From an uncultured Gammaproteobacteria bacterium (GTDB taxonomy: Bacteria; Pseudomonadota; Gammaproteobacteria; Nitrosococcales; Methylophagaceae): DNA of 64,000 nt. The translations under genes were made by a program, and so were the position numbers. The DNA lies in assembly GCA_937900515.1 (NCBI GenBank), contig CALCCU010000165.1:416-64415 (forward strand), in the 5' to 3' direction. Each line of letters starts with the position of its first letter. Position 1 is the stretch's first letter. Of the stretch, positions 4,210 to 48,615 are shown one piece after another. A model generated the notes under the pieces. The model was not told the origin of the DNA. It saw only the letters and a program-made list of their open reading frames with translations, and did not search any database.

Positions 4210-4234
4210 GTTGAGCTGAGTAATAGATTAAGAA

Positions 4235-4777: not shown

Positions 4778-4781
4778 TTTA

Positions 4782-11290: not shown

Positions 11291-12805
<1,515 letters not shown>

Positions 12806-28614: not shown

Positions 28615-29856
28615 CTAACAAGCATACTGCATTTCAAGCTGTTGAAAGCGTGGCGTGTTACGATCTTCCTTTCTACATATTTTTAATAGATCATCAACAA
28701 AATAGTGCAGTGCACGTTGCTCAATTTGCTTAATTTTTGTTTGTTGTTCATCGCTGAGCATGTGATACATGCTTGCTGCACCAAAATCACCAAATAGGAT
28801 CTGTCCAGACTGATCAAATAAGGTGTTATGAGCATATAGGTCGCCATGGGATACTTTATTGTTATGAATATGTTCGAACACATCCTTCAGCTGTTGGATT
28901 ATTTTATCTATTAATTCAATTTCTAATGTAAAGCCATCTGGAAAGGTATCTCTTGAACAAGTATCAAAATTGGGAGGAAGCCCAAGATTTTTATAGTGTT
29001 CAGGGATGAGTTTCATTATCAACGCTGAATAGTCACCTTCATCGACTTGAGCAATTGACTGAACTAGGTTGGGGTGTTGACCCACTTTCAAACACGCTTT
29101 TAATTCATCGGCCGGATATCCATCACTAGTGATACCACCTTTAAAGACTTTTACTGCTATATCATTAGGAAAATCTGTATTCACCGTATTCCAACGTGCC
29201 GTTGAAATAATGCCCGATGCGCCTTGACCTAATTGTTGATGGATAGTGAAGGTTGATGATGCTATTGCAGGAATAGACTCTATATGAGTATTGGATTGGC
29301 TAAATGGATTACCTGAAAATGCCAACCACGCTAGTCGAGGTAAGTCGAGGAGTTGATCGGGAAAGGCGGTTAATTGGTTGGCAGAAATTCTAACTAATTC
29401 TAAGTTCAGAGATTGTGATAACGTAGCAGGCAATTGGGTTAACTGATTACCCGCTAACATAAGCTTTTGTAGGCTAGGCCGCTCACCTAATGAGTTAGGC
29501 AAGGTTTCAATTTTATTATCTGTTAGTGTTAACCAACGTAGTTTAGGTGGTAATGAATTAGACGGTACGGTGTGAATTTTATTAGATTTGATACCAATCA
29601 TTTCTAAGTGTTCACATTGACCTAATACTTCTGGTAGTACCTCAAATTGGTTATTGGATAGAAAGATGATCTTTAGTTTTTTTAATTTACTAAGGCTATT
29701 AGGTAATTCTCTTAATTGATTATTAGATAAATCAAGAATCTCTAGGCTATCAGCAAGCGATAATATGTCTTCTGGGAGCGCGCTTAAACTTTGTGAAATT
29801 GAAAGGTGTTTAGTGCCAGTTAAATGGCCAGATGTAAGTTGTTCTAGTGTGTGCAC
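28615..29856 (-). CDS. Leucine-rich-repeat protein fused to a eukaryotic-like protein kinase domain
   Basis: About 7-8 LxxLxLxxNxL repeats (LEILDLSNNQLRELP, LKIIFLSNNQFEVLP, LRWLTLTDNKIETLP, LQKLMLAGNQLTQLP...). Then a Gly-loop LGQGASG, a VAIK-like IAVKVFK, a catalytic loop HGDLYAHN and DFG (FGDFGAAS). No signal peptide. Confidence 0.8.
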   Translation of the reverse strand: MHTLEQLTSGHLTGTKHLSISQSLSALPEDILSLADSLEILDLSNNQLRELPNSLSKLKKLKIIFLSNNQFEVLPEVLGQCEHLEMIGIKSNKIHTVPSNSLPPKLRWLTLTDNKIETLPNSLGERPSLQKLMLAGNQLTQLPATLSQSLNLELVRISANQLTAFPDQLLDLPRLAWLAFSGNPFSQSNTHIESIPAIASSTFTIHQQLGQGASGIISTARWNTVNTDFPNDIAVKVFKGGITSDGYPADELKACLKVGQHPNLVQSIAQVDEGDYSALIMKLIPEHYKNLGLPPNFDTCSRDTFPDGFTLEIELIDKIIQQLKDVFEHIHNNKVSHGDLYAHNTLFDQSGQILFGDFGAASMYHMLSDEQQTKIKQIEQRALHYFVDDLLKICRKEDRNTPRFQQLEMQYAC

Positions 29857-31947: not shown

Positions 31948-31982
31948 ATAAGGCCTCAGTTTATTCCGAGGCCTTTTCTTTT
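31948..31982. terminator. Bidirectional rho-independent terminator
   Basis: AGGCCTC-N10-GAGGCCT flanked by an A-run and a T-run. Shared by gloA (+) and the small-ORF operon (-). Confidence 0.7.
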
Positions 31983-32220
31983 AGCTGTTTAAAGTAGTCA
32001 CATTTGACCAGTTAAATCCAGTAGGTTCGAGCTCTCGCTGCTTCAACTTGGTAGCAGCTTTACTCATGTCAGCCATAAAGTCATCAAACTGACGACGAGA
32101 GAGCCGAAGAGTGACTGCACCGAGGTTGATATGTGTCATTTTACAATCAAAACAATATTGAATATCGCAACTAGAACCCTGTAGTAATGTTTCTGGTTGG
32201 CAAGATGTGCGGTGTTCCAT
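31981..32220 (-). CDS. Small Cys-containing protein (79 aa), unknown function
   Basis: The ATG at 32220 sits 4 nt after the stop of the upstream ORF, with AAGGAA upstream. Four Cys residues lie in the first 26 residues, including a CFDC pair. The longer ORF from 32283 would overlap the upstream gene by 59 nt. Confidence 0.45.
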   Translation of the reverse strand: MEHRTSCQPETLLQGSSCDIQYCFDCKMTHINLGAVTLRLSRRQFDDFMADMSKAATKLKQRELEPTGFNWSNVTTLNS

Positions 32221-32224
32221 AGTA

Positions 32225-32464
32225 TTATTCCTTATTATTTGCTGGTTTTTCACAGTATTGCTGCCAAGTTTTTTTCTGGTCAAGCCATTTATCTCGTTCT
32301 GTGCTAGCCATATTTTGTTCTAGCAATAAGCCGTAATTTCTATTTATAAGACTAGATAAACACCGGTTTGGTGAATTTAAATACATCATTTGTAAGTGCT
32401 GGATAGCTGCACGTAGTAACCCTATGTGGTCTTGCTCTATCTGAACTTGATTCATCGCAGCCAT
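32225..32464 (-). CDS. Small helical protein (79 aa), unknown function
   Basis: Its start overlaps the stop of the upstream ORF (TAATG). No family recognised. Confidence 0.45.
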   Translation of the reverse strand: MAAMNQVQIEQDHIGLLRAAIQHLQMMYLNSPNRCLSSLINRNYGLLLEQNMASTERDKWLDQKKTWQQYCEKPANNKE

Positions 32465-32646
32465 TAGATGTGTTTAGCTGCTAATGAACGCAGCATTCCC
32501 CATACGCTTTTCTTAGATTTGGGATCAAGGCAATGGAAGTCTTCAGGGTGCAATTTACCTTCCTGCATTAATGATTGAAGCTTATTTGGAGAAATAGCAA
32601 GGTTGATAATAGCCGTAGGCTGTGACTCAAAGAATAATGGTTTCAT
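32464..32646 (-). CDS. Small protein (60 aa), unknown function
   Basis: First ORF behind the Fur-box promoter. No family recognised. Confidence 0.4.
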   Translation of the reverse strand: MKPLFFESQPTAIINLAISPNKLQSLMQEGKLHPEDFHCLDPKSKKSVWGMLRSLAAKHI

Positions 32647-32682
32647 AGTATTTATAATCCCTCAGAAATAAACTGAAATTGA

Positions 32683-32726
32683 ATTATAAAATGTTATTTA
32701 TACAAATGCAAATGATTATCATTTAG
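32683..32726 (-). promoter_or_regulatory. Sigma70 promoter (TTGCAT-17-TATAAT) with overlapping Fur box
   Basis: The minus strand reads CTAAATGATAATCATTTGCATT-(17-nt spacer from the TTGCAT)-TATAAT. It matches the 19-bp Fur consensus GATAATGATAATCATTATC at 14 of 19 positions, with the central AATGATAATCATT perfect. The -35 is at 32706-32711 and the -10 at 32683-32688. Confidence 0.6.
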
Positions 32727-32742
32727 ATTAAAAAAGGGGGCG

Positions 32743-33570
32743 TTAATTATGCCTTGCCGCAGGCCACCATAATTGCAGATCTGAATTAGGTGTTCTAAAA
32801 GCAGCAATTTTAGCTTGAGTACTGGCTTTAAGCAGATAGTCTTGCAAGGCTTTTGCCCCAGCATAATTAGAGCTATTCATCTTCTTGGGATTAACAATGG
32901 TTGAGCTCATGACTCGCTGTAATAGCGGGTCATCATTAATCAGTATGGTTAATTTGCTATTGTTTTTAGCCTTATATTTTAAGAATGGAATCGCACCCCA
33001 AATAAAATAAGCCTGCTGCTGTTCAGCAAATTTGGCCACAGAATTGCCACCGTCATTGGGTTCAATAAACCAAGGGGATTTATTTGGTTGCCTTGCTTGA
33101 TTCCAGATTATATCTGTTAAGTACTGAACGCCGGCTTGTGGGCTGGCAATAAATTTAGACTGGCTATGAGCAATTTTTATGAGTGCTTGGGCAGCATTGA
33201 TAGATCCTTTTATCTTGGCAGGATCGGAGGAGGGGCCAATAATCACTGCCTGATTTGAAAACACCATCCTGGGCCACTCACCAAACCCCTCTAATACAAA
33301 CTGATCAAGATGTGCTTTACCAAAATGTGAAATAACGATATCAGCTTGTTCTAATTTAGCTATTTCAAACACATCACTACCATTTGTTAGCTCAACATGG
33401 AGCCCTGTCTGCTGTTCAAAATCGTTTATTAAATATTGGATAAGACCACTGTAAACAGGGGTGTTGACGATAGCTAGGCGGATGGGAGTGGGATTAGATA
33501 CTTGTGTGACATCAGCATAGTTACTGAAATTGAAGAAGAGTAAAAATAACAAAGTGAATAGTCGAGTCAT
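32743..33570 (-). CDS. Periplasmic binding protein, TupA-like fold but lacking the tungstate-binding motifs
   Basis: Signal peptide. It is collinear with the TupA at 41221..42027 (...VISHFGKAHLDQFV..., ...VIIGPSSDPAKIKG..., ...AQALIKIAHSQSKFI..., ...QQAYFIWG...). However, TTTS is replaced by VNTP and RGDDSGT by SPQAGVQ. Confidence 0.65.
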   Translation of the reverse strand: MTRLFTLLFLLFFNFSNYADVTQVSNPTPIRLAIVNTPVYSGLIQYLINDFEQQTGLHVELTNGSDVFEIAKLEQADIVISHFGKAHLDQFVLEGFGEWPRMVFSNQAVIIGPSSDPAKIKGSINAAQALIKIAHSQSKFIASPQAGVQYLTDIIWNQARQPNKSPWFIEPNDGGNSVAKFAEQQQAYFIWGAIPFLKYKAKNNSKLTILINDDPLLQRVMSSTIVNPKKMNSSNYAGAKALQDYLLKASTQAKIAAFRTPNSDLQLWWPAARHN

Positions 33571-33645
33571 ATTTTTACCTTGATTGTCGTGTCTGCGGCA
33601 GCTCTGGCTAAGAAAAATCTAAGCCAGAGCTATCGAGATAATACT

Positions 33646-35655
33646 TTATTTGAAGTCTAGCTTAACACCAGTATAGAAAAAACGACCTGCTTGTGGGAAG
33701 CCGTAACTAGTCGAATAGTCTTCATTAAATAAGTTATCAGCACCCACATAAACACTACCTAATTGTTTTGGTAATGCGTAACTTAATTTAGCGGATACTA
33801 GATTGAACGCTGATAATTTACGATAAATAGTAGGATCTACACGAGAAAAATAAGCTTGTTCGCCGATACGTTGGAAGCTACCGTTAAGGGTAATATTGTT
33901 TGAAATATCATAGTCTGCTTGTAACGATAGTTTTGACTTAGGGCGATATTGCAATGTGGTCGAGTCTGCATTGGCAGATTTGTCCGTTGCATGTAGTAAA
34001 CCTAAACTTGCTCTAAGCGCTAATTGGTCTGTTGCTTGAATCATGCCTGACATATCAATACCTTCAAGCTCCATTTTTTGGCGATTCATATATTGGTTAG
34101 CATTATCTTTTTCAATAAAGTCATAAACGATTGAATGATAGGCTGCAACATCTAGGCTGGCATTTTGCCAGTTGTTGTTGATACCCACTTCATAGTGGTT
34201 GGCACGTTGAAAACCGAGAGCGTCATTTCCAGAGCTGGCATCATAAAGTTGTTTAATGGTGGGTGCATCTACTTTACGACCATAACTCGCATATACGGAT
34301 GTATTTGCATTAAAGGCTTTAGATAATGCTAACTGAGCCGATTGAGTATTATCATCGCTGCCACCGTCTTTATCTAATTGATGATAACCAACACCTGTTA
34401 CTAATGTTAAATCGTAGGCCAATGGTTGGGTCACTTCAAAACCGTATGAACGTACATTGATATCTTTATTCACATTGGTAGTAACATATTTAGAACTGTT
34501 ATTACAGGTTCCCGCATTACATTTAGTTTGTTGCGAATCGAATGATTCACGTCGTTGATCTATACTGAATGCTAATTGGGTGTCACTGCCAACCATGCCA
34601 TTTAATTGAGCATGAGCGCCACGGATATCAGTTTTATCTCTTTGAATAAATGAATTCTTTTTGATAATGGTGTTGTAGTTATTGTCATCATAACCGGCAG
34701 AATTTTCATTTTCGTGGTTGTTGAAGAACCATAACTTTCCTGCCCAGTCATCAGTGAAGTCATAATCTGCACCGACTTGGAAAGATGTGCCTTGTTGATC
34801 TTCAGTACGTTCGTATTTTGCTTTTTGAGCAAAGTCATCGGTGCCATTATTAAACACAGTTGGTGGTTTGCCATAGTCACCATCAAAATGATTAATAAAG
34901 AGGCCTAGACGCAATTTATCCGTGACTTGACGGTTATAAGACCCCATAAAGTTAACACGACGATAGTCACTATTATTACGATCATTATCATCTTGATAAT
35001 TTGCTACTGTTGTTGCTAGCACTGGATCGAAGTCATTGGATACTGAGAAGGCATCGCGAGCTCTGACACCGGCAGAAAAGAAGAAGTCATTTTTAGCATC
35101 GCCATAACCCGTATACGCATTGGTCTGCCAATAATGGTCACTACCTAATTCTGCTTTACCACCAGATTGAAGTCCATCAAAGCTACTGCGAGTGTGAATA
35201 TCTAAAACACCGCCCATACCACCATCACCATATAAAACAGATGATGCACCAGCTCGAAGATTGATGGAGTCGATGGCGAAAGTAGGGATAAGTGTGGGAT
35301 CAAACTGACCGTCGTTAGTCGAGTTTAAAGGAATACCGTTTACGAGTAGTTTAATTTGACGGGTACGTAAACCACGGATATCTATTCTAGGCGTGCCATC
35401 CGCACCATTGCGAACATTAAGTGAAGGGATAAAGCGTAAGGCCTCATCTAATGAGCGAGCACCTGAACGTTCAAAATCAGTTTGAGAAAGTGAAAACGAA
35501 CTGCCAATAGCAAGCGATGGGTTAACGATAATTTGACCCAATTGGTATGAATCTTCAGTCGCAGCGTAAGAAGATGTCGCAATACTAAGGGCAAGTGTGC
35601 TGAAAAGAGTAGAGGTTATATTCCTACAAATATAACGGTTATTAAACAATTGCAT
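33646..35655 (-). CDS. TonB-dependent outer-membrane receptor
   Basis: Signal peptide, a TonB-box-like QIIVNPS, a plug domain (ARSLDEALRFIPSLNVRNG...IDIRGL), a 22-strand-type barrel, and the C-terminal ...FYTGVKLDFK. Confidence 0.9.
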   Translation of the reverse strand: MQLFNNRYICRNITSTLFSTLALSIATSSYAATEDSYQLGQIIVNPSLAIGSSFSLSQTDFERSGARSLDEALRFIPSLNVRNGADGTPRIDIRGLRTRQIKLLVNGIPLNSTNDGQFDPTLIPTFAIDSINLRAGASSVLYGDGGMGGVLDIHTRSSFDGLQSGGKAELGSDHYWQTNAYTGYGDAKNDFFFSAGVRARDAFSVSNDFDPVLATTVANYQDDNDRNNSDYRRVNFMGSYNRQVTDKLRLGLFINHFDGDYGKPPTVFNNGTDDFAQKAKYERTEDQQGTSFQVGADYDFTDDWAGKLWFFNNHENENSAGYDDNNYNTIIKKNSFIQRDKTDIRGAHAQLNGMVGSDTQLAFSIDQRRESFDSQQTKCNAGTCNNSSKYVTTNVNKDINVRSYGFEVTQPLAYDLTLVTGVGYHQLDKDGGSDDNTQSAQLALSKAFNANTSVYASYGRKVDAPTIKQLYDASSGNDALGFQRANHYEVGINNNWQNASLDVAAYHSIVYDFIEKDNANQYMNRQKMELEGIDMSGMIQATDQLALRASLGLLHATDKSANADSTTLQYRPKSKLSLQADYDISNNITLNGSFQRIGEQAYFSRVDPTIYRKLSAFNLVSAKLSYALPKQLGSVYVGADNLFNEDYSTSYGFPQAGRFFYTGVKLDFK

Positions 35656-35675
35656 TGTTACAGTCCTAGATAAAA

Positions 35676-36239
35676 TTAATTAGATTGAGTGCTTTTTTGG
35701 AAGGTTTTCCAGGCTAATAAGCCAAAAACACCGCCAATAAAGCCGAATAGTGAGTGTGAAAGTAATGGCATTAACACGCCAAAATTAAGTGAGTCGCTGT
35801 AGATAGCAAAGTTAGTTTGGGCAGCGGCTTTAATAAGCGGTTTTAGCATATGGGCAATAGCAGTAAACAGCGGTACTAAAATTATTAAACGACCTTGCCA
35901 ACTCAGACGGTTGTATAACAGATCCAGCGTTAGACCTTGTGCTAACAAAATAATAAGGCCAACTGGGCTTGCCGAGAACATCGTTAACGCAAGCATTGAA
36001 CCGGTGCTGGCAATCGTTGCTGCCCATTTTTGTTGTGATGCTAAACGCAAGAAAGCAAAAATCGCCATAAACTCTAAACCATGACGACCGGGCATATCGA
36101 GCGGCCAACGTAGCGTTTTATGCAATAAGATCGCCACTGCACCAGTACACACTAGCAACAGAAGTTCACGTTGCTTAGCGCTAATCAGATTAAAACTGTC
36201 TGAGATACTCTTTTCTTGCAACTTGCCAGACATCGGCAT
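35676..36239 (-). CDS. Small polytopic membrane protein (about 5-6 TM), unknown function
   Basis: 187 aa, mostly hydrophobic helices. It overlaps the upstream gene by 50 nt if the ATG at 36239 is used. It resembles no transporter family I can name; its size recalls ECF S-components. Confidence 0.5.
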   Translation of the reverse strand: MPMSGKLQEKSISDSFNLISAKQRELLLLVCTGAVAILLHKTLRWPLDMPGRHGLEFMAIFAFLRLASQQKWAATIASTGSMLALTMFSASPVGLIILLAQGLTLDLLYNRLSWQGRLIILVPLFTAIAHMLKPLIKAAAQTNFAIYSDSLNFGVLMPLLSHSLFGFIGGVFGLLAWKTFQKSTQSN

Positions 36240-36948
36240 TCTCCGTTGATTGTTCTATAATTAAAGTAGCTTTACCACCGATCCAAATTGCTCTTGGCCA
36301 TGCGCCCATGGCAATGATTAGGTCTTGGTTGCTAATGACTTGCCCTTCTAGCGATTGAATAACATCTATACCGCTGTCATTTAATAATTCGCCCACAGAC
36401 ACACTTTGCTCTGCTCGTTCACGCATACCTTTTAGCCATAACATACGACCATCACTGCCTGAGCCATTTAAGCCAACGGATGCTAATGCGCCAATCACCC
36501 CTTGAAAGTCACCGCCTAAACCCTGTAGTGAAACGCATGCTTGTTTGGCAATATCATGCGCATCATCTTGAGTAACGACTTGGTGCTTAGCTAAAAATCC
36601 AAATTGAATCATGGCATGATTTACTTGGCTGGTATCAGCAATGCACAAGCCAGGATCGGATCCTTCTGCACTCTCATTGATTAAATAATCACGACAAAAA
36701 GATGAAATGTCATCAACATGATCTGAGCTTGTCGCCACCGTAATACATGCTGCGCTGTTATGTGAAGTGAACGGAACATGAGGACTTACTAATAATTGGT
36801 GGCGAGTAATAACATTACATTCACCCCAGTTATTCTCATCCATTGCGGCGCCAATTGAACGGGCATGATACCCAGTACCTCGGCTGTCTAGATTATCGGT
36901 ATCGTCGATGCCTATAAGTAAGTGAATAGGACGTTTTTGCAAAGACAT
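36190..36948 (-). CDS. TiaS kinase-domain (TCKD)-like protein, stand-alone
   Basis: The N-terminus IHLLIGIDDTDNLDSRGTGYHAR resembles the GIDDTDSxxGMCTTY start of archaeal tRNA(Ile2) agmatidine synthetase TiaS. Later ...SDPGLC... and ...QGVIGALASVGL... fall in the same order as the TiaS npG and GLIGALAAVG segments, as I recall them. Confidence 0.5.
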   Translation of the reverse strand: MSLQKRPIHLLIGIDDTDNLDSRGTGYHARSIGAAMDENNWGECNVITRHQLLVSPHVPFTSHNSAACITVATSSDHVDDISSFCRDYLINESAEGSDPGLCIADTSQVNHAMIQFGFLAKHQVVTQDDAHDIAKQACVSLQGLGGDFQGVIGALASVGLNGSGSDGRMLWLKGMRERAEQSVSVGELLNDSGIDVIQSLEGQVISNQDLIIAMGAWPRAIWIGGKATLIIEQSTENADVWQVARKEYLRQF

Positions 36949-36972
36949 AGTCTATCTTGGGGTTATCAGTGA

Positions 36973-36996
36973 CGTTATATTCAACCATATATATCG
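36973..36996 (-). promoter_or_regulatory. ModE operator (molybdate-responsive) upstream of the TCKD-like/TBDR operon
   Basis: The minus strand reads CGATATATA-TGGTTG-AATATAACG against the published ModE consensus CGnTATATA-N6-TATATAnCG. There is one mismatch across the two 9-nt arms. It lies 25-48 nt upstream of the ATG at 36948. Confidence 0.6.
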
Positions 36997-37014
36997 GTTG
37001 GTGTAAATGATGGT

Positions 37015-37362
37015 TCATTCTTGCTTTAATTCACTCATTAATTTGATAGAAGTTGTATCAATAGCTTCCAATGCCTGTCGTTCCATCTGGCGATAAATCT
37101 GAATCACGTTGAGACCAAAATCACTGACTTGAGCTCCACCGCCATGTTTTCCACCCGTTGCAGTTATAACTAGGGGCTGCTTAAAGCTAATATTCATCAT
37201 ATTGACTAAATCCCAAGCACGCTTGTATGACATATGCATCGATTTAGCGGCGGCAGAGATTGAACCAGTTGTGACAATGGCTTCCAGTAAGTCGACTTTG
37301 CCTGGGCCTAGTGCAGTATCACCATTAAAAGGGATTCGGATATTAAGTTTGATAGCACTCAT
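37015..37362 (-). CDS. ModE N-terminal-domain-only winged-HTH protein (no Mop/TOBE domains)
   Basis: TGSISAAAKSMHMSYKRAWDLVNMMN...ATGGKHGGGAQVSDFG parallels E. coli ModE residues SGSISQGAKDAGISYKSAWDAINEMN...ATGGKGGGGA. The protein ends after 115 aa. Confidence 0.75.
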   Translation of the reverse strand: MSAIKLNIRIPFNGDTALGPGKVDLLEAIVTTGSISAAAKSMHMSYKRAWDLVNMMNISFKQPLVITATGGKHGGGAQVSDFGLNVIQIYRQMERQALEAIDTTSIKLMSELKQE

Positions 37363-37368
37363 TTTTAT

Positions 37369-37803
37369 CTAGCCTGCAGTATTGTGTTCAACCCAAACAT
37401 TACCATCGGGACGCGCTTCTTTTTTCCAGAATGGTGCTTTGAATTTAAGTTCTTCTATCAACCAGTTACAAGCATCTAATGCTGCTCGACGGTGTGCTGA
37501 CCAACATGCAATTACAACAATGGCATCGGCAGGTTTGATATGACCAACACGGTGAGCAATTAAGCAATCAATGAGCGGCCATTTCTGCGTTGCTTCAGCT
37601 TCTAATTTTTTAAGATAACGCTCGGTCATTTCAGGATAATGTTCTAATACCATCTCAGTGACCGCAGCATCATCATTAAAATCGCGCATGCTGCCAATAA
37701 ATGTCGCTGTAGCACCAAATTGACGGCCAAGATTAGATTGGGTTTCATGTTGGCTGATTAGTTGCCATGGCTCAAAAGTATGTGCTGAAATGTGGATAGC
37801 CAT
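37369..37803 (-). CDS. moaE: Molybdopterin synthase catalytic subunit
   Basis: 144 aa with GATATFIGSMRDFN... and ...IVVIACWSAHRRAAL... typical of MoaE. Follows moaD by 2 nt. Confidence 0.9.
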   Translation of the reverse strand: MAIHISAHTFEPWQLISQHETQSNLGRQFGATATFIGSMRDFNDDAAVTEMVLEHYPEMTERYLKKLEAEATQKWPLIDCLIAHRVGHIKPADAIVVIACWSAHRRAALDACNWLIEELKFKAPFWKKEARPDGNVWVEHNTAG

Positions 37804-37805
37804 TA

Positions 37806-38033
37806 CTATCCTCCTGTCACTGGCGGAAAGAAAGCAACCTCATCGCCATCGTTAACAGGACTCGCTAGTTTTGCATATTCTAGGTTGATCGCAACCAAAA
37901 GGTTATCTGGTTGCTCAGCATTATTTGTAGCAATTTTCCACACTTCATCTGCCGTTGATGCATGTTCAATGCTACGATCTGACTGCCCGATTTGTTCACG
38001 AAGGCTTGCAAAGAATTTGACTTGTATACTCAT
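37806..38033 (-). CDS. moaD: Molybdopterin synthase sulfur-carrier subunit
   Basis: 75 aa, ubiquitin-like, with the C-terminus ...FFPPVTGG (Gly-Gly end). Confidence 0.87.
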   Translation of the reverse strand: MSIQVKFFASLREQIGQSDRSIEHASTADEVWKIATNNAEQPDNLLVAINLEYAKLASPVNDGDEVAFFPPVTGG

Positions 38034-38077
38034 CTGGTTGAATGTTTATTTTAATTTAAAGACTATAGGATACTCTG

Positions 38078-38557
38078 ATGGCTGATTTAACGCATTTTAA
38101 TCAAGCAGGTGAAGCGCATATGGTTGATGTTGGCAGCAAATCTGTCACGAAGCGTATTGCTGTTGCGGAAGGTAAAATTATGATGCTTGAAAATACCTTT
38201 GAGCTCATAAAACAAGGTAATCATAAGAAAGGTGATGTGCTTGGAATTGCTCGGATCGCAGCAATTATGGCCGCTAAAAAAACAGCTGATTTAATTCCTT
38301 TATGCCATCCTTTAGCGCTGACTAAAGTTACAGTAGACTTTCAGCTCTTAGAAAGAGAAACAGCAGTTCAGTGTCGCGCTCAAGTGGAACTGAGTGGACA
38401 AACTGGTGTTGAGATGGAAGCGCTAACTTCAGTCCAAGTCGGCTTATTGACCATTTATGATATGTGTAAAGCGGTGGATCGAGGTATGGTGATTACCGAT
38501 GTACGCCTACTAGAAAAAGCAGGCGGTAAGTCAGGACATTGGGTGAGAGAGCTGTAA
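38078..38557 (+). CDS. moaC: Cyclic pyranopterin monophosphate synthase accessory protein
   Basis: [18 protein letters not shown]..., [37 protein letters not shown]...[10 protein letters not shown]: a textbook MoaC. Confidence 0.94.
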
Positions 38558-38561
38558 GTAC

Positions 38562-39620
38562 TTAAGCAAAGATTTTATTGAAGGGAACCACCTCACCTGA
38601 CTGAGTCACATCATAACCAGATAAACCTGCGAGTTGTTGTTTATAAGCGTCACTTTTCAGGATTGTAATAATTTGTTGGACAGCAGGACTGTGTGATGAA
38701 GCCTGTGGGACTGCTAGGCAGTAATGTTCCCATACAAGTGGTATAAACTCGAGATTAAACTTCTCAGCCATGGGAGCAATACCAAAGCCGACATCAGCCG
38801 CACCGCTTGCAATCATTGCCGCTACGGCCATATGGGTGAACTCCTCATTGTCATAACCAGTGATTTGTGATGCTGAAATAGCATGCTTTTTGAGTAAGTG
38901 ATCGAAAAGTAAGCGTGTGCCAGAATTAGCTTGGCGGTTAATAAATTGGATATTCTGCTGGCAGAGTGATGCGATGCCTGAAATTTGTTTATCAGTATCT
39001 TTACTGACCATTAAGCCTTGATTACGCTTAACGATATAGATCAGTTGGTGAGAATCAGGAGAGAGAGTAGACAGGTAATGTGAGCTTATTTCTTGTGAGA
39101 AAGGTGCTTCTGGAATATGAAAACCTGCAAGATTACACTGTTGTGAATCTAAAGCTTGAATACAATCCAAGCTACCATGGAAGTGTAAATCTAACCGTAA
39201 GTCAGATTGTTGGTGCATTAAGTCACGTAAAGTGCTGACAGCTAGACCATGACTGGCATATATAGTAGTTCGCTCCTCAGAATGTGTTGAAAGAATAGTT
39301 TCAAGCTCTTGTTTGAATTGCGTTGATACATTATCAAGCTCTGGTGAGAAACGTGCCGTTAATTTCTGATTAGCATTGATAAGTGCCTGCCCCGCCGCTG
39401 ATAAACGTGCGCCTCTACCACGCTCTAGAATCACTAAAGGTTTTTGCAGTCTATCTTGCCACTTATTAAGTAGACCCCAAGCAAAACGGTACGATACGTT
39501 TGCATGCTGTGTGGCTTTTTGTAGTGAGCCATTTAGAACAATACCTTCCAATAATGTAAATAGAATAGGATCGATATCGTGCTTCGCCATTTGCCAGCGA
39601 AGGTTTAATTTAATTTCCAT
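38562..39620 (-). CDS. Transcriptional regulator: ModE-type wHTH fused to a periplasmic-binding-protein-like domain
   Basis: The N-terminus NGSLQKATQHANVSYRFAWGLLNKW...ERGRGARLSAAG is ModE-N-like. The C-terminal ~240 aa look like a type-2 PBP fold (...IYASHGLAV..., ...GAADVGFGI...). The start could be 39620 (MEIK) or 39638. Confidence 0.7.
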   Translation of the reverse strand: MEIKLNLRWQMAKHDIDPILFTLLEGIVLNGSLQKATQHANVSYRFAWGLLNKWQDRLQKPLVILERGRGARLSAAGQALINANQKLTARFSPELDNVSTQFKQELETILSTHSEERTTIYASHGLAVSTLRDLMHQQSDLRLDLHFHGSLDCIQALDSQQCNLAGFHIPEAPFSQEISSHYLSTLSPDSHQLIYIVKRNQGLMVSKDTDKQISGIASLCQQNIQFINRQANSGTRLLFDHLLKKHAISASQITGYDNEEFTHMAVAAMIASGAADVGFGIAPMAEKFNLEFIPLVWEHYCLAVPQASSHSPAVQQIITILKSDAYKQQLAGLSGYDVTQSGEVVPFNKIFA

Positions 39621-39649
39621 ATAAGCATGCCTTAACATATTTTAGTGAA

Positions 39650-39840: not shown

Positions 39841-41190
39841 ATGACAAATTATAAAAAACTACTTGCAGCAACAATACTATCTGCAATGACGACGTCAGCA
39901 TATGCGGGATCTGAAATTGAAACGTTGATTAACATGTTGCATGAAAATGGAATGGTAAGTGATGCACAATTTGGCCGCTTACAAGCTGAATTAAAGCAAA
40001 ACCAAATTCAAGCAACAGAAAAAGCGGCACAAGTAGATAAGCAACTTGCTGAAGCGACTAAACCTTCTGACGTTGAAATTGAAGTGAAAGGTGGCGTGAG
40101 TCTTAAAACTCGCGATGGTAAATTTACAACTAAGTTGGGCGGACGAGTCCAAGCTGATGCAGCAAGCTATAGTGGTGATCCTGATATTGGTAATGGCACA
40201 GAAATTAGACGTGCACGGTTATACTTACAAGGCACTATGTACAATGATTGGGGCTATAAATTACAGTATGATTTTGCAAGTACGGGAGCCAACGGTAAAG
40301 GTATTGCTGATGCTTTTATTACCTATAATGGTTTCGATGACTTACAACTAAAAGTCGGTAACTTTAAAGATCCGTTCAGTTTAGAACAACAAACTAGTTC
40401 TAAATTTGTACTGTTCACAGAGCGATCATTAGCAGGCGCTTTTGCAGCTGGTCGACACATTGGTTCAATGGTAAGCACAAAACAAAAACACTGGTCATTA
40501 GCGGGTGGCGTATTCGGTGATTCCCTCACGGCAACGAATGGCAATAATCACGATCAAGATGAGGGATGGGGCTTAGGGGCGCGAGGAACTTATGCGCCTA
40601 TTAATGAAAAAACTAAACTTGTCCATTTAGGGGTAGGGTTAAATTACCGTGATGCGGGTGGTGCAAATACAGCACGTTTTAAAACGCAAGCTGAGACACA
40701 TATTGGTGGTGTAAATATTCTTGATACAGGCAGTATCTCTGCTGTTTCAGATTACACTAAAGTTGGTTTTGAGCTTGCTTCTGTAGTGGGACCTTTCTCG
40801 GCTCAAGCAGAATATATAACAACATCTGTAAACCGTAATAATGCGACTGATTTAGATTTTGATGGTTGGTATATCCAAACAGGTTACTTCTTGACGGGCG
40901 AATCACGTAATTATAAAAAAGGTGCTTTTGGTGGGGTGAAACCAAAATCTAATGTAGGTGAAGGTGGTATCGGTGCCTGGGAATTAGGGCTTAGATATAG
41001 CACGCTAGATTTGATTGATGCAGATGTTGATGGTGGTGAGGCTGACTCTGTAACCTTAGGTTTAAATTGGTATCCAACACCAACATTACGTTTTTCTGCT
41101 AACTACGTTGATGTCTTAGAAGTAAAAGGTGGAACGTATGCTGATGAAGAATCTCGCGTTTTTCAATTACGTAGCCAATGGGCATTTTAA
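39841..41190 (+). CDS. Anion-selective porin of the OprO/OprP (phosphate-selective porin O/P) type
   Basis: Signal peptide, a short coiled coil, then GGRVQADAASY...IRRARLYLQGTMYNDWGYKLQYDF... and the C-terminal ...FQLRSQWAF, characteristic of Porin_O_P. Confidence 0.8.
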   Translation: MTNYKKLLAATILSAMTTSAYAGSEIETLINMLHENGMVSDAQFGRLQAELKQNQIQATEKAAQVDKQLAEATKPSDVEIEVKGGVSLKTRDGKFTTKLGGRVQADAASYSGDPDIGNGTEIRRARLYLQGTMYNDWGYKLQYDFASTGANGKGIADAFITYNGFDDLQLKVGNFKDPFSLEQQTSSKFVLFTERSLAGAFAAGRHIGSMVSTKQKHWSLAGGVFGDSLTATNGNNHDQDEGWGLGARGTYAPINEKTKLVHLGVGLNYRDAGGANTARFKTQAETHIGGVNILDTGSISAVSDYTKVGFELASVVGPFSAQAEYITTSVNRNNATDLDFDGWYIQTGYFLTGESRNYKKGAFGGVKPKSNVGEGGIGAWELGLRYSTLDLIDADVDGGEADSVTLGLNWYPTPTLRFSANYVDVLEVKGGTYADEESRVFQLRSQWAF

Positions 41191-41220: not shown

Positions 41221-42027
41221 ATGACGTTATTTCAAAAAGTTATAACAATTATGCTGATGTTGGTCATAAGCTCAGCAGTATTCGCGGTTGAGCATTTAAA
41301 ATTATCGACGACAACGAGTACCGATAATTCGGGTTTATTAGCTGTATTACACCCACAATTTGAAGAGAAATACGGTGTAAAGGTCGATGTTATTGCTGTT
41401 GGCACTGGTAAAGCATTGAAGATTGGTAGTAATGGTGATGTGGATGTTGTGTTTGTTCACGCACCTGCTGCTGAACTGAGTTATGTTGAAAGTGGTGATT
41501 TTATTGATCGTAAGGCTGTCATGCATAACGATTTTGTAATTGTTGGGCCAACTGTCGACAAAGCTGGTTTGGCAGGCGCTAAATCAGCCGCTCATGCATT
41601 ACAACTTATTGCTGAAAGTCAGTCAGAGTTTATTTCGCGTGGTGATGACTCAGGGACACATAAAAAAGAAAAGTCATTGTGGTCTGGAGCGGCTATCAAG
41701 CCAGAAGGTCAGTGGTATGTCGCAGCTGGCCAAGGAATGGGAGCTGTATTGAAAATTGCTGATGAAAAACAAGCCTATGCTTTAACTGACCGAGGTACGC
41801 AGATTGCTTATGCCGACAAAATGAACTTGAAAGTGGTATTTGAAGGTGATGAAGTTTTGTTCAACCCTTATCACGTAATGGCTGTTAACCCAGCTAAACA
41901 TCCGCATGTTAAATATGAGTTGGCTTCTCAATATATTGAGTTTGTTACAAGTGCAGAAGGTCAAGCGATCATCGCTGGCTTTCGTAAAGCTAATCAACAA
42001 TTATTCTACCCTGATGCAGTTAAATAA
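41221..42027 (+). CDS. tupA: Tungstate/molybdate-binding periplasmic protein TupA
   Basis: Signal peptide; the canonical TupA anion-binding motifs LSTTTSTDNSGLL and SRGDDSGTH; 268 aa. Confidence 0.8.
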   Translation: MTLFQKVITIMLMLVISSAVFAVEHLKLSTTTSTDNSGLLAVLHPQFEEKYGVKVDVIAVGTGKALKIGSNGDVDVVFVHAPAAELSYVESGDFIDRKAVMHNDFVIVGPTVDKAGLAGAKSAAHALQLIAESQSEFISRGDDSGTHKKEKSLWSGAAIKPEGQWYVAAGQGMGAVLKIADEKQAYALTDRGTQIAYADKMNLKVVFEGDEVLFNPYHVMAVNPAKHPHVKYELASQYIEFVTSAEGQAIIAGFRKANQQLFYPDAVK

Positions 42028-45012: not shown

Positions 45013-45954
45013 ATGACATTAAGAATCGAGATCGACAATTTAGCCAAGCATTTTGGCGAAATAAAAGCTGTAGATGGTGTGTCATTTTCAGTGAATAAGG
45101 GAGAGGTGTTAGGTTTCCTCGGGCCAAATGGTGCGGGTAAATCGACTACCATGAAAATGGTAACAGGCTTTCTAACCCCGACTAGCGGAACAGTAAGAGT
45201 CTGCGGTCACGATGTTTTAGAAGATCCTATTTCGGTGAAAGCAAACTTAGGTTATCTTCCTGAAGGCGCGCCTGCTTACGCTGATATGACTCCTGATGGC
45301 TTTTTAAGGTTTATTGCTGATGTTCGAGGTTTATCTGGTGCTGCGAAACAATATGCTGTTGAACATGCCGCCGAAAGAGCACAAATTAAACATGTAATGT
45401 TTCAGCCGATTGAAACATTATCTAAAGGTTATAAACGCCGAGTAGGTTTAGCCCAAGCGATTTTGCACAATCCTCCTGTTTTAATTTTAGATGAGCCTAC
45501 TGATGGTTTAGATCCGAACCAAAAACATGAAGTGCGTACGCTTATTAATGAAATGTCTCACGATAAAGCAATTATTATTTCTACCCATATCTTGGAAGAG
45601 GTACATGCTTTATGCCATCGCAATGTATTGATTGCTAATGGTAAGCTGAAATTTGATGGTACGCCGAATGAGCTTGAAGCAATGTCTCGTTATCATAATG
45701 CGGTGTGTGTGGCAGTTGCGAACGTCGACAATGATAAAGTTTTATCTTTCCTTAAAAGCTTAGCCTATATAGCTTCGGTCGAAGAGTTGTCAGGAACTAG
45801 AGGCTTCAGAGTTTATCCTCAACAAGGTAAACAAATTACCGCAGAACTTTCACAATCTATTCGTGACAACAATTGGGACATCAGTTCTCTTCATGCTGAA
45901 AATGGTCGTTTAGATGAAGTATTCAGAACCATCACAATGGGTAGCAACAAATGA
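45013..45954 (+). CDS. ABC transporter ATP-binding protein (ABC-2/GldA-like)
   Basis: Walker A GPNGAGKST, signature LSKGYKRR, Walker B LILDEP. Confidence 0.9.
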   Translation: MTLRIEIDNLAKHFGEIKAVDGVSFSVNKGEVLGFLGPNGAGKSTTMKMVTGFLTPTSGTVRVCGHDVLEDPISVKANLGYLPEGAPAYADMTPDGFLRFIADVRGLSGAAKQYAVEHAAERAQIKHVMFQPIETLSKGYKRRVGLAQAILHNPPVLILDEPTDGLDPNQKHEVRTLINEMSHDKAIIISTHILEEVHALCHRNVLIANGKLKFDGTPNELEAMSRYHNAVCVAVANVDNDKVLSFLKSLAYIASVEELSGTRGFRVYPQQGKQITAELSQSIRDNNWDISSLHAENGRLDEVFRTITMGSNK

Positions 45955-46691
45955 ACATGAGTAATATTTGGTTTATTATGAAGCGTGAGTTGAGTGGCTA
46001 TTTTGCTACGCCAGTCGCTTATGTTTTTATTATTAGTTTTTTATTATTAACAGGGTTTTCAACATTTTTTGTTGGTAATTTCTTTGAGCGTGGAGAAGCT
46101 GATTTATATCCTTTCTTCTCTATTCACCCATGGATTTATGTATTGTTGATTCCTGCTATTTCTATGCGATTATGGTCTGAGGAGCGTAAAAGCGGATCAA
46201 TAGAACTGTTGATGACTCTCCCTGTTTCTGTGTTTGAAGCGGTATTGGGTAAATTCTTTGCTGCCTGGTTATTTACTGGTCTGGCATTATTTTTAAACTT
46301 TCCTTTATGGATCACGGTTAACTATCTTGGTTCTCCAGATAACGGTGTCATCATTACTGGCTTTTTAGGTAGTTTTTTAATGGCTGGTGGCTTTTTAGCT
46401 ATTGGTGCCTGCGTTTCTGCAACAACAAAAAATCAAGTTATTGCGTTTGTATTGAGCTTAATTGTGAGTTTGATTTTTGTGTTGAGTGGCTACGGCATTG
46501 TATTAGACTTTTTTAGTAGTTGGGCACCAAAAGTACTGGTTGATGCAATTAGTTCTTTTAGTTTCTTAACTCACTTTGATGCGATTTCTAAAGGTGTGAT
46601 TGATTTGCGTGATATGTTCTATTTCGCATCTGTCATTTTTGTATGGCTATTTGCGAATGCCATTGTTGTTAATGCACGCAAAGCCGACTAG
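45951..46691 (+). CDS. ABC-2 type permease (GldF-like)
   Basis: Six hydrophobic segments; overlaps the ATPase gene by 4 nt. Confidence 0.8.
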   Translation: MNMSNIWFIMKRELSGYFATPVAYVFIISFLLLTGFSTFFVGNFFERGEADLYPFFSIHPWIYVLLIPAISMRLWSEERKSGSIELLMTLPVSVFEAVLGKFFAAWLFTGLALFLNFPLWITVNYLGSPDNGVIITGFLGSFLMAGGFLAIGACVSATTKNQVIAFVLSLIVSLIFVLSGYGIVLDFFSSWAPKVLVDAISSFSFLTHFDAISKGVIDLRDMFYFASVIFVWLFANAIVVNARKAD

Positions 46692-46704
46692 GAGTTTTTG
46701 ACAG

Positions 46705-48615
46705 ATGAATAAGCAATTATTATCGACAACTGGCTTAGTTTTAGCGGTTATCTTATTTTTATCATTCAATATTGTCACTAATGACAATATGAAATCAGCG
46801 CGAGTTGATTTAACGGAAGATAAGCTTTACACCTTATCAGACGGTACTCTCAATATTCTTGAATCATTAAACGAGCCGCTCACTCTGCGTTTCTATTATT
46901 CAGAATTAGCGGGCCAAGATTTACCCAGTATCAAATCGTATGCTCAACGCGTTCAAGAGTTATTAGAGGAATATCAACGAGCTTCAAACGGTATGATTCG
47001 TTTGATTGTTATTAACCCAACGCGTTTTTCTGATAACGAACAGCGTGCTAAGCAATACGGTTTACAAGGTGTGCCTCTTGAAGGTGGTACGGATCCTTTA
47101 TTCTTCGGTTTGGCTGGCGGTAATTTACTTGATGGAAGGGAAACGATTTCATTTTTCCAACCAGAAAAAGAAGATGTACTGGAATATGACATTACTAAAC
47201 TGATTTACAAACTTTCTAGTGTAGAAAGAAAGTCAGTAGCAGTAATGAGTTCACTTGAAGTAGATGGTAAGCAATATGACCATGCTAAAGGTGAAGCCCC
47301 TGCAGATGGCGATGCCAAGCCTTGGGCTGTGATGGCTGAGCTTCGCCAACTATTTAATGTGTCAGTATTACCTCTTAATGTGAAACGAATTCCATCTAGT
47401 ATTGATGTACTTATGGTCATTCACCCTAAAGAGTTCTCAGATAGCGCTCTATATGCGATTGAGCAATATGTCTTGCGTGGTGGTAAATTAATTACCTTTG
47501 TTGACCCTTATTCTGAAAGTGATATTCCAGAAAAGGATCCTGATAATCCAATGTCAGCTATGTTGAAATCTCGTAGCTCAAATATGCCTACGTTATTTAG
47601 AGCATGGGGCTTTGAGCGTCATGGTGCTGATGTGGTTGCTGATCGTAAAACTGCAATCAAAGTAGATTTTGGTGCCCGTACTAATAATCAGCCTATTGAT
47701 TATGTATTGTGGCAATCGATTCCAGATGATCAGTTGAATAAAGAACAGATGATCACGCAACAATTGAAGAAAGTTGAGATGGCAACTGTAGGTCGGTTTG
47801 TCACATTAGACAATGCGAACACAACGGTAACACCTCTGATTTCTTCAAGTAATGAAGCAATGCTGGTCGATAAGCGTGTTGTACAGTTCCGTAATGATCC
47901 GATGGCATTATTGACTAAGTATCAACCAGGAACATTAAGCTATGATCTCGCTGTAAGAGTTAATGGTAAAGTAAAATCAGTATTCCCTGATGGCGTAGCT
48001 GATGATAGTGGCCAGAAGAGAAAAATATCTGGTCACCTCAATGAATCGAAGCAAGATATTGACGTGATTGCGATTGCAGATGTCGATATGCTGCAAGATC
48101 GTTTTTGGGTGCAATTGCAAGAGTTCTATGGTGAGACAATCGCTTATAGCACATCAAACAATATTGATTTCTTGATTAACTCGATTGATCAGATGTCTGG
48201 TGCTAATGGTTTAATTGGTGTGCGCTCTAGAGCAGGTTTTTCACGTCCATTTGATCGTGTTTTAGATCTTCAACGAGATGCTGAAAAGCGTTATAGAACT
48301 AAAGAACGTGAATTACAAAAAATCTTAAAAGAAACCGAACAGCGTATTGCAAGAATGCAAGTTGAGCGTAGTGGTAGTGATGATCATATTTTAAGTCCTG
48401 AGCAGCAGCAAGAAATTGCTGAGTTGCAAACGATGAAGAATAAAACCGAACAACAGTTACGTGAGGTACAAGGTAATCTACGTCAAGATATTGATAAGTT
48501 AGATACGCAGCTGAAATTCTTCAATATAGGCTTGGTACCACTTTTAGTGGCATTGGTAGCTATTATTACTGGTTGGTTACGAGTTCGTAAACGTACCCAT
48601 GGCCGTAAGCTATAA
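46705..48615 (+). CDS. GldG-family ABC auxiliary protein
   Basis: N- and C-terminal TM anchors, a large periplasmic domain and a C-terminal coiled coil, in the typical ATPase-permease-GldG order. Confidence 0.7.
   Translation: MNKQLLSTTGLVLAVILFLSFNIVTNDNMKSARVDLTEDKLYTLSDGTLNILESLNEPLTLRFYYSELAGQDLPSIKSYAQRVQELLEEYQRASNGMIRLIVINPTRFSDNEQRAKQYGLQGVPLEGGTDPLFFGLAGGNLLDGRETISFFQPEKEDVLEYDITKLIYKLSSVERKSVAVMSSLEVDGKQYDHAKGEAPADGDAKPWAVMAELRQLFNVSVLPLNVKRIPSSIDVLMVIHPKEFSDSALYAIEQYVLRGGKLITFVDPYSESDIPEKDPDNPMSAMLKSRSSNMPTLFRAWGFERHGADVVADRKTAIKVDFGARTNNQPIDYVLWQSIPDDQLNKEQMITQQLKKVEMATVGRFVTLDNANTTVTPLISSSNEAMLVDKRVVQFRNDPMALLTKYQPGTLSYDLAVRVNGKVKSVFPDGVADDSGQKRKISGHLNESKQDIDVIAIADVDMLQDRFWVQLQEFYGETIAYSTSNNIDFLINSIDQMSGANGLIGVRSRAGFSRPFDRVLDLQRDAEKRYRTKERELQKILKETEQRIARMQVERSGSDDHILSPEQQQEIAELQTMKNKTEQQLREVQGNLRQDIDKLDTQLKFFNIGLVPLLVALVAIITGWLRVRKRTHGRKL

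Follow-up and report, generated by a model that had tools for sequence, protein, structure and literature searches.

To our knowledge, bacteria import molybdenum (Mo) and tungsten (W) by inner-membrane ATP-binding cassette (ABC) systems, and we know of no energy-coupling factor (ECF) system that serves an oxyanion, works with a periplasmic binding protein or has a TCKD-type partner. For cobalamin, a solitary ECF S-component, BtuM, reportedly acts with the TonB receptor BtuB in Gram-negative bacteria (work of Rempel and colleagues, 2018). Here we analysed a window of 64 kb (the whole stretch of DNA under study, from contig CALCCU010000165.1 of an uncultured gammaproteobacterium of the Methylophagaceae) and describe in it an operon of four closely packed open reading frames (ORFs) on the minus strand, running from 36948 to 32743 with spacings of -50, +20 and +75 nt. 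It encodes a TCKD-type enzyme (TiaSL), a membrane protein with the predicted fold of an S-component (Memb), a TonB-dependent receptor of the outer membrane (TBDR) and a degenerate TupA-family binding protein (TupAL). On balance we think it probable that these genes represent a W/Mo acquisition and handling module of the Mo/W regulon, the core of which is TiaSL translationally coupled to Memb. The operon and its operator are laid out as follows.

36190-36948, minus strand: TiaSL, 252 aa, cytoplasmic, with an N-terminal TCKD (about residues 1-160) and a beta-rich C-terminal domain (about 165-252)
35676-36239, minus strand: Memb, 187 aa, six-helix inner-membrane protein, ECF S-component homologue by predicted fold
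33646-35655, minus strand: TBDR, 669 aa, with signal peptide
32743-33570, minus strand: TupAL, 275 aa, accessory periplasmic binding protein of the TupA family in which the motifs that bind tungstate are lost
36973-36996, between the modE-N stop and the TiaSL ATG: ModE-type operator, reading CGATATATA-TGGTTG-AATATAACG on the minus strand

Comparison with known systems

By functional analogy, the nearest likeness of the module is to BtuM/BtuB, a solitary S-component that works with a TonB receptor, together with kinase-type metabolic trapping as in PnuC/NadR. As in BtuM/BtuB, a protein of S-component fold occurs in a proteobacterium without EcfT or EcfA and beside a BtuB-like TBDR, and uptake would presumably be driven by the fate of the substrate after binding. 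Unlike BtuM/BtuB, the module lies under a ModE operator instead of a B12 riboswitch, includes an obligatory TCKD partner and is often accompanied by binders of the TupA, WtpA or MolA type, and BtuM was not among the Foldseek or PDB sequence matches of Memb. Group I ECF transporters (YkoEDC, CbiMNQO, NikMNQO), a class that includes metal-ion importers, are similar in that a Memb homologue is encoded with a fused EcfAA' and an EcfT in Chloroflexi; they differ in that no ECF module (EcfT plus EcfA/A') was found in the 64-kb window, nor in most of the related loci. With ModABC, TupABC, WtpABC and MolBCA the module shares a regulon (ModE box, TunR-type regulators, and riboswitches for the molybdenum or tungsten cofactor, Moco and Tuco), and the binders of these systems are encoded beside TiaSL, whereas the window lacks their permease and ATPase and the anion site of TupAL is lost. 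The likeness to PnuC/NadR and to MoSto is one of functional analogy alone, without homology to NadR or MoSto: a motor-less membrane carrier is paired with an ATP-using cytoplasmic protein, and MoSto, the ATP-dependent molybdenum storage protein, is a kinase-fold precedent for the handling of molybdate and tungstate.

Related loci and conservation of the module

A scan of one genome per species yielded 567 relatives; we examined 80 loci and fetched two more by exact protein, giving the 82 loci used below (referred to by number, L001 and so on, where they have to be told apart). Neighbours were counted after unbiased clustering of all ORFs adjoining the module in these loci, with the following results.

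TiaSL: 82/82 loci
Memb directly downstream of TiaSL, usually overlapping it: 78/82 loci
TonB-dependent receptor adjoining TiaSL-Memb: 62/82 loci
TupA-family binding protein: 20/82 loci
Protein of about 310 aa between Memb and TBDR, in Bacteroidota: 16/82 loci
Formate-dehydrogenase-type trio directly upstream of TiaSL, gammaproteobacterial: 13/82 loci

The conserved core consists of TiaSL and the S-component homologue Memb, joined by a TBDR in diderms. The original prediction, made from the letters of the window alone, had proposed a unit of four packed minus-strand genes; their coordinates and spacings proved correct, and TiaSL-Memb and the TBDR recur at the frequencies given above, but TupAL is not core, being absent from L001 and L002. 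Carriers belong to Gamma-, Alpha- and Betaproteobacteria, Bacteroidota, Chloroflexi, cyanobacteria and Latescibacterota, and include, among the proteobacteria, Methylophaga, Lentisalinibacter, Bradyrhizobium, Nitrobacter and Castellaniella; methanotrophs also carry it, as do Bacteroidales and Chloroflexi of anaerobic digesters. A metagenome scan with the Firmicute TiaSL added only five near-identical loci.

In Nitrobacter winogradskyi NBRC 14297, a second TiaSL-like copy, split into two ORFs (L037 6653-7425), lies just upstream of an intact TiaSL-Memb-TBDR set.

Association with tungsten and molybdenum genes

Between the modE-N stop and the TiaSL start we found a ModE-like 24-bp palindrome (36973-36996) with one mismatch to CGNTATATA-N6-TATATANCG, the E. 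coli ModE consensus. Shuffled sequence contains 0.3 such sites per window, even when up to three mismatches are allowed. The near-consensus box originally read here is confirmed. Its position upstream of TiaSL is conserved in eight related loci (L001-L007 and L036). By this operator the operon is a predicted member of the ModE regulon; ModE binding and repression are predicted from the conservation of the site.

We counted as Mo/W-linked the ModE- and TunR-type regulators, TupA, WtpA, MolA-like proteins, formate dehydrogenases and the Moco riboswitch. At least one such neighbour was present in 47 of the 82 loci (57%), spread over four or more phyla, against a rough expectation of about 10% for a random 15-kb stretch. 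In the Methylophaga-type loci (L001-L008) and in Bacteroidota (L055, L061, L069, L074, L077, L081), a homologue of ModE-N is encoded directly upstream of TiaSL, and regulators combining ModE-HTH or HTH_17 with PBP_like are found near TiaSL in about 15 other loci. ModE-HTH with PBP_like is the TunR-type (tungstate regulator) architecture reported by Kazakov and colleagues in 2013.

TiaSL is further accompanied by three unrelated families of oxyanion binders, TupA, WtpA and MolA-like proteins. Canonical TupA with intact TTTS and RGDxSGT motifs is found in Chloroflexi and some Gammaproteobacteria, and accompanies TiaSL in L017, L043, L048, L053 and L072. The WtpA of L081 scores 377 against an NCBIfam equivalog cut-off of 355 (2onk_E at 4.9e-72), and its gene abuts TiaSL-Memb at the place where WtpBC would be expected, with no ABC gene within 10 kb. 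In Syntrophomonadaceae (Firmicutes; L076 and L083), TiaSL closes an operon made of a Moco riboswitch, a Big_5 protein, a FecCD permease, an ABC ATPase and a Peripla_BP_2 binding protein. The PDB matches of this binding protein are led by 4ovk (2.5e-31, an unnamed periplasmic binding protein) and followed by HI_1472 (3.5e-31), the molybdate/tungstate binder MolA.

All four riboswitches of that Syntrophomonadaceae locus lack the P3 stem. The P3-less class of Moco riboswitch correlates almost perfectly with tungsten-cofactor metabolism (Regulski 2008, PMC2408646). Just downstream of TiaSL, three P3-less riboswitches stand in tandem and are followed by FdhA and two MoeA-like genes (L083 8176-8756 and 8867-13879, also in L076 and L085); this FdhA, a formate dehydrogenase alpha subunit, is split by an in-frame stop, likely a selenocysteine codon. 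The same "triple arrangement" of riboswitches is known from Syntrophomonas wolfei (Regulski 2008, PMC2408646). Riboswitch control was seen only in the Syntrophomonadaceae loci: Rfam scans of the window and 20 of 87 loci at the gathering score, cobalamin family included, returned no riboswitches but those of the Moco type, and none in the window, L081, L082, L010 or L072.

Formate dehydrogenases adjoin TiaSL in three lineages. The trio found upstream of TiaSL in 13 loci comprises a 961-aa molybdopterin subunit, an Fe-S subunit and a cytochrome b subunit that passes the cut-off for the gamma subunit of formate dehydrogenase, and in L082 an NAD-linked formate dehydrogenase (FdsD/FdhD-type cluster) adjoins TiaSL-Memb-TBDR. 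The third case is L083, with its likely selenocysteine-containing FdhA and MoeA.

Taken together, these sequence comparisons give good support to the Mo/W reading; the mechanism of the original prediction is plausible. Its claim of an undescribed Mo/W acquisition system gains strong backing from comparative genomics (47 of 82 loci), and in the literature that we searched we found no description of a TiaSL-Memb module or of such a Mo/W system. The abstract and section outline of the work on the W-specific MoeA1/MobB/FdhD pathway (PMC13197769) name no TiaSL-like component.

TiaSL

We modelled TiaSL with AlphaFold2 from 18 homologues (mean predicted local distance difference test score, pLDDT, 90.4) and searched the model with Foldseek. 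Its first 160 or so residues matched the TCKD of archaeal TiaS (3amu, 3amt, 5xob) with E-values of 3e-9 to 1e-8 and a root-mean-square deviation of 2.1 A over about 155 columns, in agreement with the kinase likeness first seen in the letters, whereas the beta-rich C-terminal 90 or so residues had no Foldseek match and aligned to no TiaS domain. By sequence, the family profile matched TiaS in the PDB (8.5e-9 and 1.5e-6), and TiaSL was hit by NCBIfam methan_mark_11 (methanogenesis marker 11) at 2e-14 and by Pfam TiaS_TCKD at 20.7 bits, under the gathering score of 27. The NCBIfam equivalog for TiaS (NF040849) gave 31.9 bits (5e-8) against a cut-off of 600, residues 9-160 aligning to positions 2-152 of the model. 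We conclude from the predicted structure that TiaSL has a genuine TiaS TCKD fold with a conserved ATP/metal motif and is predicted to use ATP. It is not TiaS: the equivalog score is 32 against 600, and only the TCKD part aligns.

The invariant residues of TiaSL fall into two sets. D15, D16, T17 and D18 (GIDDTD) and T25, which aligns with TiaS Thr18, are shared with TiaS (the archaeal tRNA-Ile2 agmatidine synthetase), as is a GxIGALAAVG motif. R49-H50-Q51, T61-S62-H63-N64-S65, C68, C102, D166-G167-R168, W217 and W241 are specific to the family and not found in TiaS. The TRGNGA of TiaS gives way in TiaSL to TSHNSAAC, which is invariant, and TiaSL has a GLC motif in addition. After its TCKD, TiaS carries the tRNA-binding FLD, an OB-fold and a zinc-ribbon, whereas TiaSL ends at residue 252 without aligned counterparts of these; it is moreover bacterial, and encoded with transporters instead of translation genes. 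In structural work on TiaS, its TCKD is reported to autophosphorylate Thr18, the counterpart of which in TiaSL is T25.

The family is large, with 6067 homologues in a 90%-clustered database and 1191 clusters at 50% identity. Its members are nearly all standalone and some 250 aa long: of the best 150 representatives, none was fused to a recognisable domain, and four carried terminal extensions of about 40-70 residues. The source databases label TiaSL "hypothetical protein".

Memb

The probable true start of Memb is the Met of MSGK at 36233, and its overlap with tiaSL amounts to 44-50 nt. Memb belongs to no Pfam or NCBIfam family and has no sequence match in the PDB. An AlphaFold2 model built from 59 homologues (pLDDT 91.3) has six transmembrane helices, and its top Foldseek matches are S-components, namely 5edl (YkoE; TM-score 0.58, probability 1.0), ThiT, RibU and PanT, at TM-scores of 0.53-0.58 and probabilities of 0.99-1.0. 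The deciding evidence came from the Chloroflexi, where an operon in L017, L043 and L048 begins with TiaSL and goes on to encode a fused double-ABC EcfAA', a CbiQ-family EcfT and an S-component. In L017 this TiaSL-EcfAA'-EcfT-S operon includes an S-component of 194 aa (11449-12033) that matches Pfam PF09819 at 27.4 bits, above the cut-off. The Memb profile aligned to it by hhalign with a probability of 98.3% (E-value 1e-14), and phmmer linked it directly to the Memb of the window at 7e-7. The identity of Memb was recognised because of structure prediction and the Chloroflexi operon, not through sequence searches.

By predicted fold and by homology, then, Memb is a homologue of ECF S-components, and transport by it is what we would expect. 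The small polytopic membrane protein of the original prediction can thus be named more closely; that prediction had also called for profile and structure searches, and these have now placed TiaSL in the TCKD fold and Memb in the S-component fold. Because Memb is an S-component homologue, it would supply the inner-membrane step that is otherwise missing from the operon. Its most conserved segment is the positively charged first periplasmic loop, R44-x-P46...P50-G51-(R/H)52-H53-G54-L55-E56.

The TonB-dependent receptor

The TBDR contains both a Plug (2e-21, 76.9 bits) and a TonB barrel (1.4e-26, 94.8 bits), each above its cut-off, and its translation shows a hydrophobic signal at the N-terminus. 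Its matches to PDB sequences cover the plug only. The best named families are of the BtuB type (TIGR01779 and NF007926), which it reaches with 124.5 and 114.6 bits against cut-offs of 600 and 836, that is 5-7 fold below. Judged by these scores it is a TonB-dependent receptor, but no equivalog of any characterised receptor, BtuB included.

These BtuB-type matches, and the annotation of the TBDR by one source as "outer membrane cobalamin receptor", raise the question of whether the module imports a corrinoid, a haem-like compound or another micronutrient in the way of solitary BtuM with BtuB, its Mo/W neighbourhood being coincidental. A solitary S-component with a TBDR is the pattern that BtuM and BtuB are reported to form, and such an import would sit well with the 35 of 82 loci that have no Mo/W neighbour. 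The distance of the TBDR from the BtuB cut-offs speaks against it, as do the excess of Mo/W neighbours over the rough expectation, the conserved ModE operator, the Moco/Tuco riboswitch that precedes the Firmicute operon, and the Rfam scans of the window and 20 of the 87 loci, in which only Moco-type riboswitches appeared. We regard this explanation as very improbable and as the least likely of those considered here.

TupAL and the form of the substrate

TupAL matches SBP_bac_11 (8e-9) and is homologous to the TupA structures 3muq (2e-24), 3kn3, 3lr1 and 5my5, but it scores 61 bits with the NCBIfam model of TupA (NF041772) against a cut-off of 400. At the aligned positions it reads VNTP instead of TTTS and S-PQAGVQY instead of SRGDxSGTH. 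The degenerate TupA-like binder described from the first reading is borne out, with both anion motifs lost. On its sequence, TupAL is not TupA; it is an accessory protein outside the conserved core. Degenerate TupAL proteins of two sub-types recur beside TiaSL-Memb-TBDR in L007, L008, L049, L052, L060, L062, L067, L070, L078 and L080. Canonical TupA, where present, lies farther off or with TupBC, as in L008, where the order is TiaSL-Memb-TBDR-TupAL-porin-TupA-TupB-TupC. In L001 and L002, the closest relatives of the window (82% identity), there is no TupAL, and the TBDR gene is directly followed by a convergent glyoxalase I gene.

The Bacteroidota protein of about 310 aa that lies between Memb and TBDR (loci in the range L033-L079, and L081) is a putative lipoprotein, to judge from a faint, sub-threshold similarity to HmuY alone. 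L081 (11280-12200 and 14405-16184) encodes two further such paralogues beside a second TBDR; the protein may serve to capture a ligand at the cell surface.

The properties of these accessory proteins bear on whether the imported substrate is a free oxyanion or an organic form. The latter could be a tungstophore or molybdophore complex, a thiometalate or polyoxometalate, or a dephosphorylated pterin from which the cofactor is made (salvage of cyclic pyranopterin monophosphate or of molybdopterin); TiaSL would then serve in salvage or release, for instance as a kinase trapping or dismantling what comes in, as NadR does for PnuC and thiamine kinases for ThiT. The classical cargo of S-components and ECF systems is vitamins and the precursors of cofactors, and the top structural matches of Memb are those for thiamine/hydroxymethylpyrimidine, riboflavin and pantothenate. 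The TBDR is closest to BtuB-type receptors, the protein with faint HmuY similarity precedes the TBDR in Bacteroidota, TupAL has no oxyanion ligands yet is conserved as a class, and the importer that precedes TiaSL in L076 is of the FecCD/Peripla_BP_2 (chelate) type. A dedicated enzyme, too, fits an organic substrate better; otherwise TupABC, encoded in the same loci, would be superfluous. However, the canonical partners are oxyanion binders (WtpA at equivalog level, TupA with an intact site, MolA-like), no genes for chelator biosynthesis were seen in the window or the loci, and Moco and molybdopterin are very labile. Nor does the S-component fold require an organic ligand, since Group I ECF transporters carry bare nickel and cobalt ions. 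We consider import of an organic form unlikely.

Because canonical binders of three families (WtpA, TupA and MolA-like) are partners of the module, we favour free tungstate or molybdate over a complexed form. The import of a complexed form, as first proposed, is disfavoured by these partners, but the lost site of TupAL, the TBDR and the protein with faint HmuY similarity keep the idea alive. The substrate is most likely tungstate or molybdate, and of these probably tungstate, with the evidence leaning to the free oxyanion; that it is favoured carries somewhat more than half of our belief in the overall model.

Other TupA homologues near the module show departures of their own. In an Anaerolineales metagenome-assembled genome (L017 5091-6398, minus strand), a TupA of 435 aa is fused to a C-terminal Oxidored_molyb domain (sulfite-oxidase-type, Moco-binding) and adjoins a 504-aa Oxidored_molyb protein (3348-4862, minus strand). 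L043, L048, L053 and L063 encode TupA homologues of 398-485 aa.

Surroundings of the operon in the window

The genes next to the operon are as follows.

37015-37362, minus strand: ModE-N regulator, 115 aa, ModE DNA-binding domain only, without Mop domains (TIGR00637 ModE_repress 3e-24, HTH_1)
37369-37803, minus strand: moaE, upstream of the operon (Pfam MoaE 6.5e-33)
37806-38033, minus strand: moaD, upstream of the operon (ThiS family 6.5e-14, C-terminal GG)
38078-38557, plus strand: moaC, divergent (Pfam MoaC 1.8e-58)
38562-39638, minus strand: ModE-HTH plus PBP_like regulator, 358 aa, divergent from the porin-TupA genes (PBP_like, PF12727, 1e-57; ModE_repress domain 7.5e-9)
39841-41190, plus strand: anion porin Porin_O_P, phosphate-type (Porin_O_P 6.6e-75)
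41221-42027, plus strand: canonical TupA (TupA structure 3lr1 at 5e-84; STTTST and RGDDSGTH intact)

Domain matches agree with the surroundings given in the original prediction (moaDE, moaC, ModE-type regulators, an anion porin and a true TupA). Its statement that the locus contains no ABC permease or ATPase holds for importers, but LptB (16158-16883) and a GldA-like ABC-2 exporter (45013-45954) are present as the only ABC ATPases of the 64 kb. No homologues of TupB, TupC, ModBC, EcfT, FecCD, WtpA or MolA were found in the window. Scans of 32300-38300 for sigma-70 promoters and terminators gave no excess over shuffles, and the operon is not defined by them. A second ModE-like palindrome (35614-35637, three mismatches, inside the first codons of the TBDR gene) was probably a chance match, given the expectation of 0.3 per window, and was set aside.

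In the segment 39841-43320 (plus strand), the porin-TupA pair is followed by an HD-GYP-like protein with similarity to a NosR-family cyclic di-GMP phosphodiesterase (1e-29). Standing without TupBC, the pair suggests a dedicated outer-membrane tungstate channel, together with a TupA that is an orphan and may supply some other carrier. A segment of about 1.6 kb, made up of TupAL and three small ORFs (31981-32646, minus strand; 100, 79 and 60 aa) that lie between TupAL and glyoxalase I, is absent from L001 and L002 and hence a lineage-specific insertion or loss; the small ORFs have no family matches and may not be genes. The ABC transporter closest to the operon is an unrelated GldA/GldF/GldG-like ABC-2 system (45013-48615, plus strand), below the equivalog cut-offs and in a non-Bacteroidota genome. 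Elsewhere in the window, 28615-29856 (minus strand) encodes a bacterial leucine-rich-repeat kinase of 413 aa, unusual in combining LRR_8 (5.5e-24) with a eukaryote-type Pkinase (2e-13).

Proposed function

In the pathway that we propose, a ModE-type repressor without metal would leave its site at 36973-36996, and the genes would be expressed. The TBDR, judging by its family, would pull the scarce substrate across the outer membrane, and a binding protein of the periplasm, which is TupAL in this operon and canonical TupA or WtpA in other loci, may pass it on. Memb would bind the substrate at its conserved loop (R44, P46, P50-E56) and, as S-components do, take it through the inner membrane. TiaSL would use ATP to capture, activate or pass on the metal for the synthesis of W/Mo cofactors, mainly those of formate dehydrogenases, and this step would make uptake through a motor-less S-component effectively irreversible, much as metabolic trapping does.

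We also considered TiaSL as a substitute ATPase that energises a solitary S-component, and rejected this as a general role because TiaSL coexists with EcfAA'T, TupABC and a MolBCA-like importer. Since these importers are complete, TiaSL is not simply a motor and more likely captures, activates or channels what is imported. The same company of several self-sufficient importers would suit a sensing device, in which Memb is a membrane "transceptor" for periplasmic W/Mo and TiaSL a kinase that signals to ModE-N or gates neighbouring transporters. Two lineages far apart, the Methylophaga-type Gammaproteobacteria and the Bacteroidota, encode a ModE-N without the molybdate-binding Mop domains directly upstream of TiaSL. 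This is in keeping with such a device, as is the invariance of T25, aligned with the Thr that the TCKD of TiaS reportedly autophosphorylates. Most loci, however, have no ModE-N, and many have regulators with a PBP_like sensor domain of their own; TiaSL-Memb and the TBDR are the sole transport-like genes in many loci, the window has no other inner-membrane importer, and Memb is homologous to an S-component from a complete ECF operon. We regard a sensing role as very improbable.

Several observations weigh against a W/Mo acquisition module as we propose it. No recognisable Mo/W gene was present in the fetched DNA of 35 of the 82 loci, 13 of these 35 being contigs shorter than 10 kb. The Foldseek E-values for Memb are weak (0.011-0.3), and its assignment as an S-component leans on the consistency of the top matches and on the hhalign link; moreover, no S-component is known to us that transports an oxyanion or has a periplasmic binding protein as its partner. 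The operon's own binder, TupAL, has kept none of the canonical tungstate ligands, and organic chelates or cofactors are the more usual cargo where TBDRs and a putative lipoprotein of faint HmuY similarity are at work. Complete ABC importers (MolBCA-like and TupABC) accompany TiaSL as well, and we know of no need for ATP-dependent processing of free tungstate. Every step of the pathway rests on comparative genomics and predicted structures.

With more doubt than confidence, we raise the possibility of a new inner-membrane route for W/Mo, in which an S-component carrier takes the oxyanion from TupA, WtpA or TupAL, or from the TBDR, and the TCKD enzyme modifies or sequesters the metal with ATP. 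The product of such a route may be a phospho- or adenylyl-metalate, or an enzyme-bound intermediate that is given to MoeA.

Implications

If this route exists, the TCKD step would be both the driving force of uptake and a point of selection between W and Mo in the assembly of the formate-dehydrogenase cofactor. It would represent a new class of coupling between transporter and enzyme, and the first role outside tRNA, and in bacteria, for the TCKD or TiaS kinase fold. The module bears on how Mo/W oxyanions cross the outer membrane at picomolar to nanomolar concentrations and on how W and Mo are separated en route to the cofactor. It offers a candidate for a W/Mo step that depends on TonB and, for S-components, a new class of substrate and possibly a dependence on binding proteins, and it is tied to formate dehydrogenases, enzymes of interest for the reduction of CO2. 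Widespread, with about 6000 homologues that form about 1200 clusters at 50% identity, present in at least five phyla and annotated only as "hypothetical", the module is a genetically tractable handle on the trafficking of W and Mo.

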